A stretch of 64,000 nt of DNA from Octopus vulgaris (lineage: Eukaryota). Positions 22,719 through 41,142 of this stretch are shown piece by piece; the stretch's first letter is position 1, and the number at the start of each line of letters is the position of its first letter. Location of the stretch: positions 35,216,001 to 35,280,000 of the forward strand of contig OX597817.1 of NCBI GenBank assembly GCA_951406725.2, read 5' to 3'. Position numbers and translations under genes: made by a program. The notes under the pieces were generated by a model. It was given only the letters and a program-made list of their open reading frames with translations. It had not been told where the DNA came from and did no database searches.

Positions 22719-22839
22719 GCTTACGGCCATATCACGTTGAAAGCACCGGTTCTCGTTCCGATCACCGAAGTTAAGCAACATCGAGCCTAGTTAGTACTTG
22801 GATGGGTGACCGCTTGGGAACCCTAGGTGCTGTAAGCAT
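22719..22839 (+). rRNA. 5S rRNA (1-nt insertion)
   Basis: Full 5S with CTCGTTCCGATC. Confidence 0.92.
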
Positions 22840-25039: not shown

Positions 25040-27148
25040 GGCAGTAATTTTATTCAGCTGAATACACGTCATTGATTGGTTGAAATTACCGAAATAGGAC
25101 AACTTAAACGTGAAATAACTTCGTAAATATAAGTTTTTCTCAAAAATCCTAAGAGTAAAAGATGTTTTATATGACGCATTCTACCAGTGTCCGAATTTTG
25201 AAAGTGTTTAGTTACAAAAAATTATTTTCTAAATCTGTCGCACAACTTCGAAAAGACCTCTGAGATGGCAAACCTGGTGATATGTTAGTTGGGATTGACA
25301 CTGGAGACAAATTATGTACTAGGAAGAAGCCTTTTATGAGTACAAAAAATGCGATGGGAATGTGTACTGGCGATGCTCGCGCCGAGAATGCATGGATTCT
25401 GTGACAGTGAGGAAAGACACATGGTTTGAAGGTGTGACCCTTCCTCTTAGGACAGTAGTTCCAGGTACGGCCTTAAGCCGATTGTTCCCTATCGGGCCCC
25501 GCGCTCAAGGAGGCCACATCCTATACGGCGACATTTCATGAAGGTGGTCTCTCAGAAGCTTAAAAAGATCTACAAAAAATGCTCTTTTTTTTAAAAGAAA
25601 ACATACTTTCTACACTTTAGCGACACAAGATGCCAAAAGATAAACCCATTCATCTAAAATTGCTTGGCTCAGTCTTTTTTGAATTTTTATGGGCATGTTT
25701 GGGTAATATATTTGTGTGGCTGTTTAAGTGTAATGGTGAATTGTATGTATATATGTGTGCGTATGTTTGTGTGTGTGACTTACTATAAATATACTTTGTA
25801 TGTTTAATTTTGAGGAAACTTATTTATTTCAATAAAGTGTGATAATGTCCACCCGATTTCTCTTCACCCTTGTCATATTTTAATCGTTATGCATCCTAAA
25901 TAGTTCATGCATGCACATTAGACTTTAATAGCCTACAAAATAATATCCATTGCACAATATAATTTTTATTGAGGAAAATAGACCAATATTTCTCAAAATT
26001 TCACTTTAATTCAATTATCTATCGAGGAAGCTTGGAAACCTAAAATAGTGGAGGGTAGTCGGTAATACTTGAACGTTTAAAAACTTCTCGCACTCCAAAT
26101 GACTCAAACTGGAAAATCGGCGAAAAAAAAAGACCTCTGCATTTGAATTTTTCAATGAGAAAAACTTTTGTGCACAGTATGCAACAACAGTAATTGAGAT
26201 GGCTGAGCATCAATATTCATTCAGGATTTGTGGCAGGTTCGTTGTTCAGTGTACTTGATCTTCACTAATATGCGCGGCATTCAATCATGTGTAACATGGC
26301 TATCGAGCGTGGATAGTTATTACGACGGTGCATACGCGGTCGTCAGTTTTGTAGTGGTTCAGGGTCACCGGTTTTCGTTCGAAGGTCTAGGGTTTCCCTT
26401 GGTTTTACAAAGGAGTGCTTTAAGTACAAACACAAATCACATATGCATTTCCACCTCTACACATATACACGCAAGGCTAAAATTTAGGGTTAGGGTTAGG
26501 GTTAGGGTCAGTGACAGGATGTTGTCTCAGTTTTAGACGCAGCAAATGATTTTAGCTCAATAGAGGCTATCGATTGGTTAAAATTAGAAAAATTAAACTA
26601 CGTTAAACTTACAAATTACAATTTTCTCAAGAAAGCCAAGAGAAAAAAAATGTTTTATTTTGACACATGCTACCAGTATACGAAGTTTAATAGTTAACTA
26701 GAAATTGTGTTGAAAACTGCCGTTCAAAAGGAAAAGATCAAAAAAAATTTCTAAAAAAAGTTTAAAATGAAGAATTAAGTGGTGGGGTTAATTTCAAAGT
26801 GCCAATCTTTGCCAATTTTTATGCAGATTCATATTCTCCATAGCCGAAAACTATGTGCAGAAAAAAAATTAAATTAAAATGGGCGTTGAGGGTTGGGGTG
26901 GGGGGAGTACAAAAGGAAGTCTTTGCCTACTCCGGTAATTTTCTTTCATGTAAATGCTTATGTTATTTCAAAAATTTACAAGCAAAATGACAATGTTCTA
27001 AAAGATGTATATGTCTATGTTATACATGACGATAAAAGTTTACATTACACTTGCCTTAGAAAAAAATGTTTTCTTAAGAAAAGAAGTTTTAGCATCAGTT
27101 TATAGTATCAATTTATAGAATAAATATATTAAAATTTACCACTTTGAT

Positions 27149-32524: not shown

Positions 32525-33010
32525 GAAAAAAAATGTGTGTAATAGGTGTAAAACAACTTCTTCTGAACGAATATGAAAAAAAAAAAAATGCGCGCACGCG
32601 AAAGGGGAGTGGGGGAGAGGCCTCGGAAAATTCACATCGGGAATTTCCGAAAGCGTCTGAGGGTCTGACCCGGGTACCAAAACAAAAAAAAAATAGTGTA
32701 ATATGTGTAAAACAACTTGCTCTAAACGAATATGACAAAAAAAATGCGCACTCGCGAAAGAGGGGTGGGGGAGAGGCCTCGGAAAATTTACATCGGGAAC
32801 TTCCGAAAGCGTCTGACCCGGGCACAAAAAAAAAAACAAAAATAGCGTAATAGGTGTAAAACAACTTGCTCTAAACGACTATGCTGAAAAAAATGCGCGC
32901 TCGCGAAAGGAGGGTGGGGGAGAGGCTTCGGAAATTTCACTTCTTCAGTCCACGGCCTTTAAACTAAGAAAAAATAGTGTAATTGGTGTAAGACTACTTG
33001 TTCTAAACGA
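32525..33010. repeat. ~150-160-bp tandem repeat, ~3 copies (possibly subterminal repeats of the adjacent DNA transposon)
   Basis: AAAAATGCGC..CGCGAAAGGxGGGTGGGGGAGAGGCCTCGGAAA recurs at ~32585, ~32740, ~32890. Confidence 0.8.
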
Positions 33011-33275: not shown

Positions 33276-33716
33276 TTATCTCGGGCCAGGATAAAGACTT
33301 GCTGCTGTCAATAAGAATACGTGTATTCTCTTGGCAGCAGGTTTGATGCTTTCCATAAATAGGAACTTGGCGAGGTATTGCTTTAAGTAACAGGTACGAA
33401 TGCCTGGGCGAACAACTGATCTCTTAACTGACCCCCACAATCTCTCTATCGTCTGTGTGTGCACCGACGCGTTTGTAGGATCAACAAAATTTTCACTGTG
33501 GTTGATGCGGAAGTGGGTATAGCCGAGATTTCCAAGAGAGTTATACGCAGCCAAGAATCGCTACATACTATGGACCCTTGGCGTATATATCGGGTAATTA
33601 AGGGGATCTGTGTGGCGGCATCTCGCCTTTCCTCTTCACCACACTCAGATGAAAGAAAGTATCAAAACTTTTTTTTGGCTACTCGCTCTATCCCACCTTC
33701 CTGTATCAAGTGACCG
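33276..33716 (-). pseudogene. Merlin/ISXO2-like DDE transposase, C-terminal half, frameshifted
   Basis: GGIER..KKF*..RDAATQIPLITRYIRQGSIVCSDSW / AAYNSLGNLGYTHFRINHSENFVDPTNASVHTQTIERLWGSVKR..LKQYLAKFLF carries the SDxWxAY, NHSENFVDP and HTQTIERxW motifs of IS1595/Merlin. Confidence 0.92.
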
Positions 33717-34235: not shown

Positions 34236-34369
<134 letters not shown>

Positions 34370-34569
34370 GGTGAATGAATTATCCTATGTTTATCGTCAG
34401 CATGGAAAATTCGTTGAACCGAAACCAGGGTAGCAAATTCACGTCAGAAACACGGTTGAAGCGACCTGTCCAAGGGTAGAAACTCCGGGTTCATGTGCAG
34501 AAATTTGTGTGTTGTATATGAATAAATGAAAGAATGGAGTCGAACGAAGATGTTAACAAAATTCCTTTA

Positions 34570-34651
34570 CTCTCGACATATGTTTCGAAGACAACATGGT
34601 TTCATTCCAAAGGAATAAAGGGTGCATTATGCAATCTTCTCATCAGGAAAG
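34570..34651 (-). ncRNA. Type I hammerhead ribozyme (predicted)
   Basis: Minus strand CTTTC-CTGATGA-GAAGA...TCTTC-GAAA-CATATG-TC^GAGAG: intact core, stems I and II pair, palindromic stem III, GUC site. Confidence 0.85.
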
Positions 34652-34928
34652 ACAGGGAGCCTCTCTCGACAACAAGACAAACAAAAATTTCGATGACTGC
34701 CTACATGGTAAACAAAACGATAATGAGAGTTTTTAAAAAAACCGTTAGAAGAATTGACGTCAAAGATAGATAGTAGGAAGAGAAGGGTTAAAGGAATAAT
34801 AGGTAGGGAACAAGTGGAGAGGGAAGGGTACGTTGATTGAAAGAATGTTCGAAGGCTTAGGAAAGAATTTCGCTATTGAAGTGGAGTGCACGTTAAGCTA
34901 ATTGTTCAAACCACAGTGACTATCGTTA

Positions 34929-36404
34929 TCATTTATATGAGTAGAAAGTATGTTTCTGCCAGTGTTTACATCTGTATGATTTTTCTATGAGTGTGTTTAC
35001 AAGGGGAACCTTAGAGAAGAGAATATGGAAGAGTTCAGAGTTGCAAATGTTACAAAATCTCCTGCCCTTATCGAAAGGAAAGGATACAGACAGTGTGAAC
35101 CAATCTAACTTGAAATTTATATTGTTGTCTTTAAGACGCCAAACTAATTTACTTAGCCCTGTACTATGTCGTTTTTTACTATCCCTGAATGTTGAATAAT
35201 GGTTTGAAATTCTCTTGGATAACTGAGAAGTGGACGCTCCTATATAGAAGACATCGGTACCGGAAGAAATTCTACACTGGTAAATAGAATTCTTAATCTT
35301 AGAATTACTAGACAAAAATTTAATTCTGTTGGAGTTGTCCTCCGAGATCGAAACGAAGTTTCTATTGCTATGATTGTTGTTACTATTATTATTAGCGCCA
35401 ACAACTACACTATTTCTATTATTATTAGTATTATTAATGGTAATGCAACCAGTAATACCACCGACAATAATACCGTTATTGTTATTACCATCAACATTAC
35501 CATTGTTATTAACACGACTAATACTATTATTAATATTATCATTGTTAACACTATCGCTGCTACCAATGCTATTACTATTAATACTATTCCTATTATTATG
35601 ATTGTATGATGGGTTGGAATTAGCAAGATTAGTGTTGGAACTCCCGGGTGAAGAATCTTTGTTTAGCAGCTTGGTATTGTGAGAAGATATAATTTGTGAA
35701 AGATTTCTAGTGTTAGAGAAAGCGATTCTAACTATGTGGGAATTGATAATAGAATGATATCTGGAATTTCTGGGAAAGTTCCCAGCAACGGCTTCACGGA
35801 ACTGCAAGGGAAGGTTCGATTTAATTTGTTTTCCGAAAGGTATTACGAACCAGATACAGTTTTTTGTGGCCTTTGAATTGTATTTAGTATTATTTGTGAA
35901 AGTAAGGGGAAAATTTCTGGGTTGGAAATTTGGGGTTGAATGGTGCTTACCTCTCCTAGTCCGTAAAGAATTTATTTTATGTACAGGGTTGCTGGCACTA
36001 TTAGAATTGAAATCACTATTCCTATTACGAGTAACTTTTCTATCTGGAGAAGCAGATGTTGGTTTAGAATGAGCTGAATCGATGTATGACACTTTCTCCT
36101 TATAACCGGCTTTTAACAAGGCGGCGTTATAGAAGTCTGCTTTTTGGTTAAAGATGTCGAATTTGGCAGATAATTTAGACAGTCTGAAGGATATATTTTT
36201 GACTAAATTATCGGTAACTGGCCTGGCATGATTACTGTGAATGCTAATATACTTAAGATTTGTTGAAGGTTTATGATAAAGGAAGTATGAGTTATTCTGC
36301 AAATTGAGGGTAATGTCTAAGAAGTTGGCTTTAGTTAATTCATCGTCAAAAACGATGCGCAAGCCCATTCTACTAAAAAACCTAACTAGTCTGTTCTTAA
36401 CCTT

Positions 36405-36406
<2 letters not shown>
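34929..36406 (-). CDS. Partial PLE polyprotein: RT C-terminus, linker and GIY-YIG endonuclease (no start codon, 5'-truncated)
   Basis: ~490 open codons: GLRIVF..ANFLDITLNL..YHKP..YISIHSNH; IWFVIPF; NSIYQC..FYIGAS..KRISNH; CNICNSE..LVN..RCKH. The ORF-track start at 36479 is an artefact of reading through (TA)n. Confidence 0.85.

Positions 36407-36460
<54 letters not shown>
36407..36460. repeat. (TA)n microsatellite
   Basis: Seen directly. Confidence 0.95.
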
Positions 36461-36461
<1 letters not shown>

Positions 36462-36493
36462 CCAAGAAAAAAGCAACAATAATGGATTAGTAG

Positions 36494-36582
36494 CTTAGTA
36501 CAATTGTTTCATACTAAGAACAATTTTATTTAAAGCTGCAAATATTGCAGCAGATACAAATGTCCAGTATTCATCAGCTAAA
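36494..36582 (-). ncRNA. Type I hammerhead ribozyme (predicted)
   Basis: Minus strand TTTAG-CTGATGA-ATACT...AGTAT-GAAA-CAATTG-TA^CTAAG. Confidence 0.78.
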
Positions 36583-36867
36583 TCACATATATGTTTTACA
36601 GACATCCTAGAGAGTTTGACTATCCTCATGAAGTATTAGGAGTGAGTTCTATGAAACATGTCTCCGGAAATTATATCTGCATTTTTATGGATAGATTCAC
36701 CTTCTCTGGGAAGTTAACAATTTTTTAAAAAACTTTTTATAAAACTGTGCATCATTAGAAAGCATTTAAGTCTGCTTATAATTTGACTTTAAACTTCATA
36801 GAACTCACTCCTAATACTTCATGAGGATAGTCAAACTCTCTAGGATGTCTGGAAAACATATATGTGA

Positions 36868-36956
36868 TTTAGCTGATGAATACTGGACATTTGTATTTGC
36901 TGCAATATTTGCAGCTTTAAATAAAATTGTTCTTAGTATGAAACAATTGTACTAAA
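36868..36956 (+). ncRNA. Type I hammerhead ribozyme (predicted)
   Basis: TTTAG-CTGATGA-ATACT...AGTAT-GAAA-CAATTG-TA^CTAAA: perfect stems I and II, palindromic stem III, GUA site. Confidence 0.8.
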
Positions 36957-37099
36957 CTACTAATCCATTCTTGTTGCTTTTTTCTTGGTTATAATCACCC
37001 CACATTATTTTATGGCTAATACCATAAAGAATTCTGGTGCATCTAAGTTAAGTACCATATTCATTTGAATTCATTTGAATTCACTTGAATCTTAATTGT

Positions 37100-37105
<6 letters not shown>

Positions 37106-37162
<57 letters not shown>
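37106..37162. repeat. (TA)n microsatellite
   Basis: Seen directly. Confidence 0.95.
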
Positions 37163-37760: not shown

Positions 37761-38439
37761 CATATTACCTATATACTTATCCGTCTGTGTGTCTATCAGC
37801 TTACTTTCATATCCATTTGCCTACACACATGTGCATCTACATATACAGACATACACACACATACATCTACATAACATCCCACTAACTATTCTATCTCTAT
37901 ATAAATAGAAACTGTGGGTATGGGGATATGATTATCTACTACGTATATTTCCTATTTAGTAGTGGGGTTGTTTCATTTATGAGGACGTACTCCTGTATTT
38001 GTCTGAGTGTTGGGTCATTGGGGGCTTCAATAAAATACGGATGTCAAGTTGCCCCAGGTTGCCCTCATGTTGGTCCTTACATTTGTAGAGTATGGAGGAC
38101 TGTTTTTTGTCGTTATATTGTCGTCAAAAACAAAAAGTCCTCCATACAAAAAACAAAAAAACAGTCCTCCATTCTCTACCAACATACCAAGGACCAGCAT
38201 GGAGGCAACCTGGGTCAACGTTTGTATGTGTCTGTGCATGAGTTCGTGCGCGTGTATGTGTGAGTGTTTTCCTGTTACAGTTGATTGGTTAGGATATCAA
38301 AGGAGTTTAGAGGTGCATTTTGTTTTCTGTTACAATATGAATTTTGTACGTTGAAGGAGCCCACATGCATTCACGATTCTCTACGTAGATGTATCTTTTA
38401 GACTTTTTTCTCACAACACAATAACTAGCTATATACAGA

Positions 38440-40013: not shown

Positions 40014-40209
40014 TCCCTTTTTGTTTTTCTTTTTTTTTTACTATTACCGAAACTGCCTGATTTAACTTCGTTTTTTTTTACGGCTTATGAAATTTTCTAT
40101 ACTGTTACGGTCATTTGAGTTTTTAGTTAAAATGACCTTATCCTAAAAAACAAAACAAAGCTGTAGTATCGGTGTATAGAATAAACATCTAAAGATTTAC
40201 TACGCTGCT

Positions 40210-40266
40210 GCTTACGGCCATATCACGTTGAAAGAAACGGTTCTAGTCTTATCACCAAAGTTAAGC
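40210..40266 (+). pseudogene. 5S rRNA 5' half (nt 1-57), diverged
   Basis: Broken at GTTAAGC by the inversion junction. Confidence 0.85.
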
Positions 40267-40331
40267 CGTAAAAAAAAGACGAAGTTAACTCAGGCAGAGT
40301 TTCGGTGGCAGTAGAAACAAAACGAAAGGTA

Positions 40332-40451
40332 ATGCTTACAGCACCTAGGTTTCCCAAGCAGTCACCCATCTAAGTACTAACTAGGCTCGATGTTGCTTAA
40401 CTTCGGTGATCAGACGAGAACCGGTGCTTTCAACGTGATATGGCCGTAAGA
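40332..40451 (-). rRNA. 5S rRNA (variant, inverted array unit)
   Basis: Full length with ~4 substitutions including nt 1. Confidence 0.85.
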
Positions 40452-40754
40452 ATCAAAGTGGTAAATTTTAATTGATTTATTCTATAAACTGATAAATAAA
40501 TTTCTTATTATAGAATAAGTTGATCCTCTTTAAAATTTATATTTTTTTACATTCGATAACAACACATTATTTAACATATATTACACTTCATTTTCATTTT
40601 TCTCACCAAGTCCAAAACTAGAGATTAACGACGTGAGATGTGAGGTGTTTTCTCGTACAGATCAACGTTTAAGGAACGTAGTTACCTAACTTGCAGCTGT
40701 ATAATGTGTTTTAGGTAACTAAAAACTCAAATGACGGTAAAAATGAGAAGGAAA

Positions 40755-40792
40755 ATGGGTGACCGCTTGGGAACCCTAGGTGCTGTAAGCAT
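40755..40792 (+). pseudogene. 5S rRNA 3' part (nt 83-120)
   Basis: ATGGGTGACC...GTAAGCAT after the inversion junction. Confidence 0.85.
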
Positions 40793-41142
40793 TACCTTTG
40801 GTTTTTTTGTTGTGTTTTTTTTACAACTACCGAAACTCTGCCCGATTTAACTTCGTCTTTTTACGGTTTATGAAATTTTCTTTCTTGTTGTAACGGTCAT
40901 TTGAGTTTTTAGTTACCTAAAACACATTATACAGCAGCAAGTTAGGCAACTATGTTCCTTACACGTTGATCTGTACCAGAAAACACCTCACATCTCACGT
41001 CGTCAATCTCTAGTTGAGGACTCGGTGAGAAAAATGAAGATGAAATGTAATATATGTTAAATAAACTGTTGTCAAGGAATGTAAAAAAATATATATTTTA
41101 ATGAGGATCAACTTATTCTAAACTAAGAAGTTTATTTATCAG

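Follow-up and report, generated by a model that had tools for sequence, protein, structure and literature searches.

A probable Hydra-clade Penelope-like insertion with two head-to-head, hammerhead-bearing ends in a (TA)n tract of Octopus vulgaris

The foldback locus and its surroundings

The window analysed here, a 64,000-nucleotide stretch of Octopus vulgaris DNA, contains a foldback bounded by two (TA)n microsatellites (Table 1). Its inverted arms, at 36457-36655 and 36795-36993, are 199 nt each, 98% complementary, and spaced 139 nt apart, with four mismatches (36852, 36897, 36956, and 36970). Repeat and inverted-repeat analysis thus recovered the 199-bp arms, the 139-bp spacer, and the (TA)n borders that an earlier note on this DNA had described. 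The layout of arms around a spacer stands, but its symmetry does not: the "spacer" is simply the 5′ portion of the right copy that has no partner in the left, and the 110-nt tail is present only on that copy. One of the mismatches (36956/36494) converts the outer U-A pair of stem I to U-G and matches the A-U to G-U change that had been pointed out in this stem. The 3′ end of the inverted copy lies at an internal site of the family, which we term site B (…GGTTATA), and its TATA fuses with the (TA)n tract. An internal ORF is wholly absent from the locus, and a target duplication is unreadable within (TA)n.

Table 1. Coordinates of the foldback, its parts, and the neighbouring element in the window
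Feature	Position	Strand	Details
5′-truncated PLE of another family (neighbour)	34364..36406	-	RT thumb, Asn-rich linker, GIY-YIG, own pLTR
Type I hammerhead of the neighbour	34570..34651	-	Palindromic ACAUAUGU helix III; predicted cut after 34575
(TA)27 microsatellite, left target flank	36407..36460		Common to the 5′-truncated end of the neighbouring PLE
Inverted 5′-truncated pLTR copy	36457..36656	-	About -315 to -116 from family 3′ end
Type I hammerhead motif	36494..36582	-	C3 at 36577; predicted cut after 36499; stem I 3′ strand CUAAG
Head-to-head junction 36656/36657, without gap	36640..36665	+	One genomic occurrence
Sense 5′-truncated 3′UTR/pLTR copy	36657..37104	+	About -453 to family 3′ end; terminal GCTGAA absent here
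Type I hammerhead motif	36868..36956	+	C3 at 36873; predicted cut 3′ of 36951
One-sided tail, about 110 nt	36994..37104	+	Site B to distal end (site A)
Predicted bulged hairpin just behind site B	36996..37039	+	Similar fold in 4/4 other copies folded
(TA)29 microsatellite, right target flank	37105..37162		

The neighbouring PLE has an open frame at 34929-36404 in which CxxC and CxH are present and the CxCX5C linker is absent; Pfam returned nothing useful for this ORF. Its amino-acid identity to the foldback family is 30-34%, which bears out the earlier assignment of the two elements to different families. The neighbour family is young (3,361 candidates, with copies 95-99% identical) and Hydra-like, has a tail of about 150 nt, and carries inverted arms in 4 of 12 loci including its pLTR (L108, L110, L111, and L116).

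The foldback lies where a 5S rRNA cluster, extending from 2024 to 63746 (68 Rfam matches above the gathering score), has a gap of 7 kb. From about 41 kb onward the 5S genes form a tandem array with a period of about 506 bp, and the first 20 kb contain a higher-order repeat (about 5.2 kb) that carries 5S genes on both strands. Tail-to-tail 5S pairs lie at 22719+/23083- and 27149+/27514-, and inverted repeats of 100 and 126 nt (40167-40494 and 40631-41000) mark the edge of the array where the 5S orientation flips. The window also contains a minus-strand IS1595/Merlin-type DDE transposase fragment at 33279-33560 (Pfam PF12762, E 6e-9), a 149-bp tandem repeat of 2.7 copies behind a 5S gene (32526-32940), a short (TTAGGG)4 run (26484-26508), and a small hairpin-like repeat with a weak match to miRNA models (38081-38182).

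Hammerhead motifs and the parent family

Using a custom descriptor, we found the type I hammerhead core (CUGANGA / GAA / UH, three stems, stem I open) on both strands of the foldback. The plus-strand motif consists of stem I UUUAG/CUAAA, CUGAUGA, AUACU/AGUAU, an extended helix II, GAA, the palindromic ACAAUUGU, and A17. Across the 64 kb the descriptor matched both foldback motifs, one motif in the neighbouring element, and no more, and 0/2000 dinucleotide shuffles of the 448-nt unit gave a match. The reading of one complete type I hammerhead per arm, on opposite strands, is thereby upheld. A covariance-model scan, which had been proposed as a check, did not recover them: Rfam hammerhead models have no match in the whole window (E≤1) or in the element (E≤10), likely because of the 60-nt helix II insert. 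The feature previously taken for a large loop II does contain the GCUGCAA/UUGCAGC pairing, but it is more aptly described as a continuation of helix II with interruptions (GGACA/UGUUC, UAUUU/AAAUA, then GCUGCAA/UUGCAGC) that is 93-97% paired in 80 copies. The long helix II in this family shows that Rfam models overlook such PLE hammerheads.

These 80 copies constitute alignment A1, drawn from 82 hammerhead rows after two with foreign 5′ flanks (L099:5104 and L102:5230) were excluded. The hammerhead core is intact in 67 of them. Variants present in at least five rows occur in 0/19 core and helix III columns versus 26/115 other columns (p=0.024; the rows are related). Stem cells are paired in 95.4% of cases, and two-sided changes affect 5 pairs (20/500 shuffles), mostly through one U-A to G-C switch in stem II. 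The check on core conservation and covariation among genomic copies that the earlier note had called for therefore yields a conserved core with modest covariation, and this pattern offers modest evidence for selection on the parent element, through which the ribozyme may be kept. Diverged subfamilies (L102:1196-1338, L102:5230-5374, and L096:2269-2413) have position 7 changed (CUGAAGA), with compensation in stems I and II.

Structure prediction suggests that the foldback context disfavors the ribozyme fold. Both strands of the foldback have a predicted MFE of -360 kcal/mol, and imposing stems I and II on the full transcript is predicted to cost 115-117 kcal/mol, versus 6.8 in a single arm. The sole reason that the hammerheads face outward is that each arm has the length to hold one. 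On either strand, the antisense arm is transcribed before the ribozyme, so that a 199-bp duplex rather than cleavage is predicted. The earlier expectation that a long hairpin would compete with self-cleavage agrees with this result, as the hairpin is predicted to win by a penalty of ~115 kcal/mol. If the locus is transcribed, a read-through transcript of either strand is thus predicted to give double-stranded RNA rather than cleavage. Contigs from 4 of 24 sequencing runs (RNA source guessed) include other family copies and none spanning the foldback. The predicted probability of the monomer hammerhead fold is 0.0002-0.004, and the helix III self-duplex is predicted at -6.4 kcal/mol, in keeping with the suggestion that the palindromic helix III is suited to dimers; as modeled, the ACAAUUGU palindrome could pair in trans to make a helix III dimer.

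To place the foldback in a family, we searched the 2.8-Gb genome with the element and obtained 2,984 candidates, 40 of which were scored. Most genomic copies align to the right part only (36657-37104), and many extend further 5′. Proceeding upstream in coding copies, the order is the GIY-YIG frame, an Asn-rich linker, and the RT frame; this RT-then-C-terminal-GIY-YIG order is found in L032 and L097-L105, where the frames are broken. Motifs read directly from the protein sequence are RIRWK, PADKT, FDINNYY, PMGSSDSAE, LYRDD, CNCRIKSKC (CxCX5C), and CxxC..E..N..CxH. Two copies (L082 and L085) carry RRIRWKTY and PADKTGNLY, DKT is also present in L079, L081, L083, L088, and L092, and L032 has the CNCRIKSKC linker and GCQLC..E..N..CIH, with CCHH absent by eye. 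In four tandem copies (L083, L086, L088, and L092) the tail end continues into the ORF start MEKVNIEFSPK, which identifies the sequence as a pLTR. The Penelope-like origin that had been proposed for the foldback is therefore confirmed, in that this pLTR ends copies coding for RT and GIY-YIG. No intact full-length ORF is present among nine long copies, in which the longest open frame is 813 aa, and Pfam searches of the family gave no RT match and only a sub-threshold GIY-YIG match (E 0.0026). Atlas neighbours, an indirect line of support, score 0.94-0.98, and RVT_1 is found in 16-48% of the members of some clusters.

In Craig et al. (2021, PMC8557442), RWK, DKT, CxCX5C, and CxxC/CxH around E and N define the Hydra clade. 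These motifs, together with the (TA)n target, place the family in this clade on the basis of motifs and by-eye comparison, and the 3′ hammerhead is a further Hydra-clade feature that it possesses. The distance from ORF start to tail, about 4.2 kb in L097, exceeds the length of "generally under 3 kb" given for the clade. By eye, the protein resembles Hydra-1_Obim and Hydra-1_Amil but has a different hammerhead and therefore represents a separate family. RIRWK, CNCRIK, and gaaacaattgta have 0 matches in the available part of the PMC8557442 supplement, and a literature search that covered few subscription journals, with Repbase and Dfam outside its scope, returned no paper on the family. As far as that literature and that part of the supplement show, and with the nearest candidates compared by eye, the family is new.

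Two loci on one contig (L090 and L091, G000:C18) are chimeric insertions: RT sequence directly abuts the final 160 nt of the pLTR, and an inverted internal piece is also present. Just upstream of L032 (G000:C11:53728200-53737500) lies another PLE fragment, Hydra-1_Obim-like by eye and itself inverted-duplicated. Different Hydra-like families thus pile up at (TA)n at this locus, as they do in the window.

Inverted pairs across the genome and their possible origin

A 21-nt word from the 3′ half of the hammerhead has 1,954 exact matches in the genome (control word, 0), and the 26-nt junction word has one at ≤1 mismatch. We grouped the first 100 matches of the 21-nt word, on contig C1, into 76 loci. 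Among these listed loci at least 23 are outward-facing pairs (about 30%), a lower bound given exact word matching; none face inward, and the sole direct pair is a local duplication. Scaled genome-wide, this extrapolation suggests roughly 450 outward pairs. One listed foldback (L141, G000:C1:112437000-112439200) is locally tandem-duplicated (1,273 bp). An inverted arm of this same type lies beside six long coding copies (L032, L097, L099, L103, L104, and L105). A separate comparison took in 30 loci chosen for their similar tails, the window among them: an inverted arm that stops at B is present in 17, and two complete hammerheads in 7; by direct alignment, 13 of 20 listed C1 pairs contain two. 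A breakpoint comparison of 57 loci, which misses the short arms of L056 and L057, found no two real foldbacks that share both breakpoints; the rows labelled "inv -2307" were dropped as (TA)n artefacts of the reference, including one flagged breakpoint-sharing pair.

These counts bear on the proposal of the earlier note that the foldback is a distinct non-autonomous element. A self-propagating unit of this kind, retrozyme- or MITE-like, would use its opposed ribozymes to release or regulate RNAs of both polarities, and the intact cores, the 98% likeness of the arms, and the frequency of two-hammerhead foldbacks would all suit it. Nevertheless, we consider it highly improbable, since the pLTR ends coding copies, the junction is unique, breakpoints vary between foldbacks, and the spacing of listed pairs ranges from 60 to 5,151 bp. 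Even the two listed C1 pairs of equal spacing are 78% alike with different breakpoints and are therefore different insertions. The antisense arm also precedes the ribozyme on both strands, at the predicted cost given above, and copies that start at the cut site beside (TA)n number 0 (nearby control, 3; uncut word, 505), a weakly informative footprint, given that the 5′ end of most copies is joined to an inverted arm or to other DNA. Retrozymes consist of same-strand tandem units that each carry a hammerhead, whereas the locus holds one inverted pair; foldback or MITE families consist of many copies with the same internal structure, whereas here the junction is unique and the breakpoints vary. 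The alternatives posed at the outset, a one-off integration by-product or an amplified unit, gave way to a third outcome: a by-product, but one that arises again and again in many independent insertions. The locus itself is ordinary retroelement debris, at the short extreme of a continuum that reaches long coding copies.

Two fixed ends are apparent in the family, the distal site A (…GCTGAA then TATA) and site B, 110-116 nt inside. In 23/23 listed C1 pairs a tail-bearing arm is matched with one that ends at B, although independent use of A and B would yield at most half mixed pairs; the arms of one of the 23 (L140) are distant and may stem from two insertion events. In 19/19 two-copy loci the partner arms are closer to each other than the median, and a rare variant is common to both arms in 4/17 inverted loci. 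Among listed C1 pairs, the mean partner rank is 5.0 versus 22 expected, and the partner is the nearest arm for just 18/46 arms. The predicted hairpin behind site B is a candidate start signal for reverse transcription; behind site A, 6 copies gave a weak hairpin (-6 to -10 kcal/mol) whose fold varied between them.

We conclude with high confidence that the locus is a short, 5′-truncated insertion of a protein-coding Hydra-clade PLE, with two hammerhead-bearing ends head to head in (TA)n, likely formed when both cut strands of the target primed reverse transcription at two fixed RNA sites. The family link, the two fixed ends, the variable 5′ breakpoints, the unique junction, and the (TA)n target are observed, and from them we infer the priming steps. 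The GIY-YIG domain would cut both (TA)n strands, after which one cut end would prime at A and the other at B, both on one RNA and perhaps assisted by the UAUA present at each site; both cDNAs would then stop early and be joined head to head. Each antisense arm is attached to a target-strand 3′ end, the arrangement expected from double target-primed reverse transcription. In the parent element, tandem pLTRs may allow a double hammerhead to form through the ACAAUUGU palindrome.

The main competitor starts from the same Hydra-clade stub but derives the inverted arm from a single template or cDNA that primes itself or folds back, with an endonuclease then resolving the product at the staggered sites A and B. 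Shared variants between partner arms are consistent with such a route, as are the near-symmetric palindromic junctions of 4/20 listed C1 pairs and of L003, L026, L048, and L061; several junctions (L125, L131, L132, and L134) are near-perfect palindromes. The literature proposes self-priming for rotifer Penelopes (PMC3846280) and endonuclease resolution for the tail (PMC8557442). However, if a cDNA started at A had folded back, the B arm could not extend further 5′ than the tail arm. Of 20 listed C1 pairs, 5 have the longer tail arm, 6 have the longer B arm, 4 have arms of equal reach, and 5 are unclear, so that B is longer in 6/15 resolved pairs; it is also longer in L049, L055, L066, L072, and L073. 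The junction of the foldback locus, furthermore, is asymmetric, gapless, and non-palindromic. We therefore regard this route as rather unlikely overall; self-priming on antisense RNA may be compatible with the data, and self-priming in general is a rival mainly for the palindromic junctions.

Two-ended priming is preferred on the strength of the A/B rule, the finding that either arm can be longer, the relatedness of partners, and the both-strand priming of a PLE described by Frangieh et al. (2024, PMC11167929). Extended to the whole family, the proposal would be that every inverted insertion records a dimeric PLE enzyme copying one RNA twice, with one cut (TA)n strand as the primer at each of two sites that end in UAUA and are separated by 110-116 nt. 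We advance this general form tentatively, at slightly short of an even chance. The closeness of partner arms may instead reflect later gene conversion, the PAc start site is reported in PMC11167929 to be non-homologous to the target and the same on both strands, and palindromic junctions were read as self-priming by Arkhipova et al. (PMC3846280). An interpretation of the one-A/one-B rule as two-ended priming was not found in the literature searched, which included few subscription journals.

A by-product origin could also be combined with a present role, in which the loci serve as sources of hairpin RNA through which the family is silenced by small RNAs or undergoes A-to-I editing. The near-perfect 199-bp duplex with its low predicted MFE and the abundance of outward pairs, about 30% of listed loci, are compatible with this role. 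We judge it improbable; the arms of many listed pairs have drifted by several changes in 80 nt, as neutral debris would.

With some 2,000 copies, a long tail, and ends sharply fixed at two positions, the family makes two-ended priming testable by counting, and sites A and B offer set points on the RNA for work in vitro. If two-ended priming is true, the A/B rule, shared variants, and equal stop points provide a genome-scale read-out of PLE integration, and hundreds of long hairpin loci arise alongside, with the potential to silence the family.

Comparison with known systems

An inverted 5′-truncated copy with a one-sided tail is the textbook PLE layout (PMC8557442 and PMC3846280), and the route to such insertions is posed as an open question in PMC8557442. 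The ambisense arrangement, which had been thought unusual, is already in print: Cervera and de la Pena (2014, PMC4209133) describe dual hammerheads on opposite strands, 100-700 bp apart, in Schistosoma, and Penelope-13_HM of the Hydra clade has a 5′-truncated inverted copy with a hammerhead listed on each strand (PMC8557442). What is new here is the long helix II, the long tail, and the clean counts for the A/B rule.

The family shares with the Hydra clade (PMC8557442) the RWK, DKT, CxCX5C, and CxxC/CxH motifs, the (TA)n target, and a hammerhead with a short helix III near the 3′ end. It is not one of the Hydra families listed there, and its hammerhead sequence differs. Furthermore, it exceeds 4 kb and has an Asn-rich linker as opposed to <3 kb, its helix II region is 60 nt instead of loops of 3-9 nt, and its tail is about 110-116 nt instead of 30-40. 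Like the EN+ PLE insertions of Arkhipova et al. (2013, PMC3846280; see also PMC8557442), it features a head-to-head truncated inverted copy, a tail at one end, and Asn-rich RT-EN inserts; unlike those in PMC3846280, the foldback locus is without any internal ORF.

Similar to the minimal PLE hammerheads of PMC4209133, the motifs are type I with a palindromic helix III and a predicted dimer. They differ in that positions 10.1-11.1 are mostly A-U, not G-C, and in their much longer helix II. Other metazoan PLE hammerheads cleave weakly and as dimers (PMC4209133). The metazoan non-LTR retrozymes (bioRxiv 10.64898/2026.07.22.740005) likewise carry a pLTR-derived type I hammerhead at a non-coding locus; those are same-strand tandem repeats, whereas the present locus is one inverted pair with an unamplified junction.

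A functional parallel to two-ended priming is Poseidon_Ac (PMC11167929), whose protein cleaves and extends both strands in vitro, initiates at two positions flanking the tail, and uses an AT-rich target; its hammerhead is dispensable for insertion. Poseidon_Ac belongs to another clade, and its start sites are reported to be non-homologous to the target, whereas both ends of the octopus family finish in TATA beside (TA)n.
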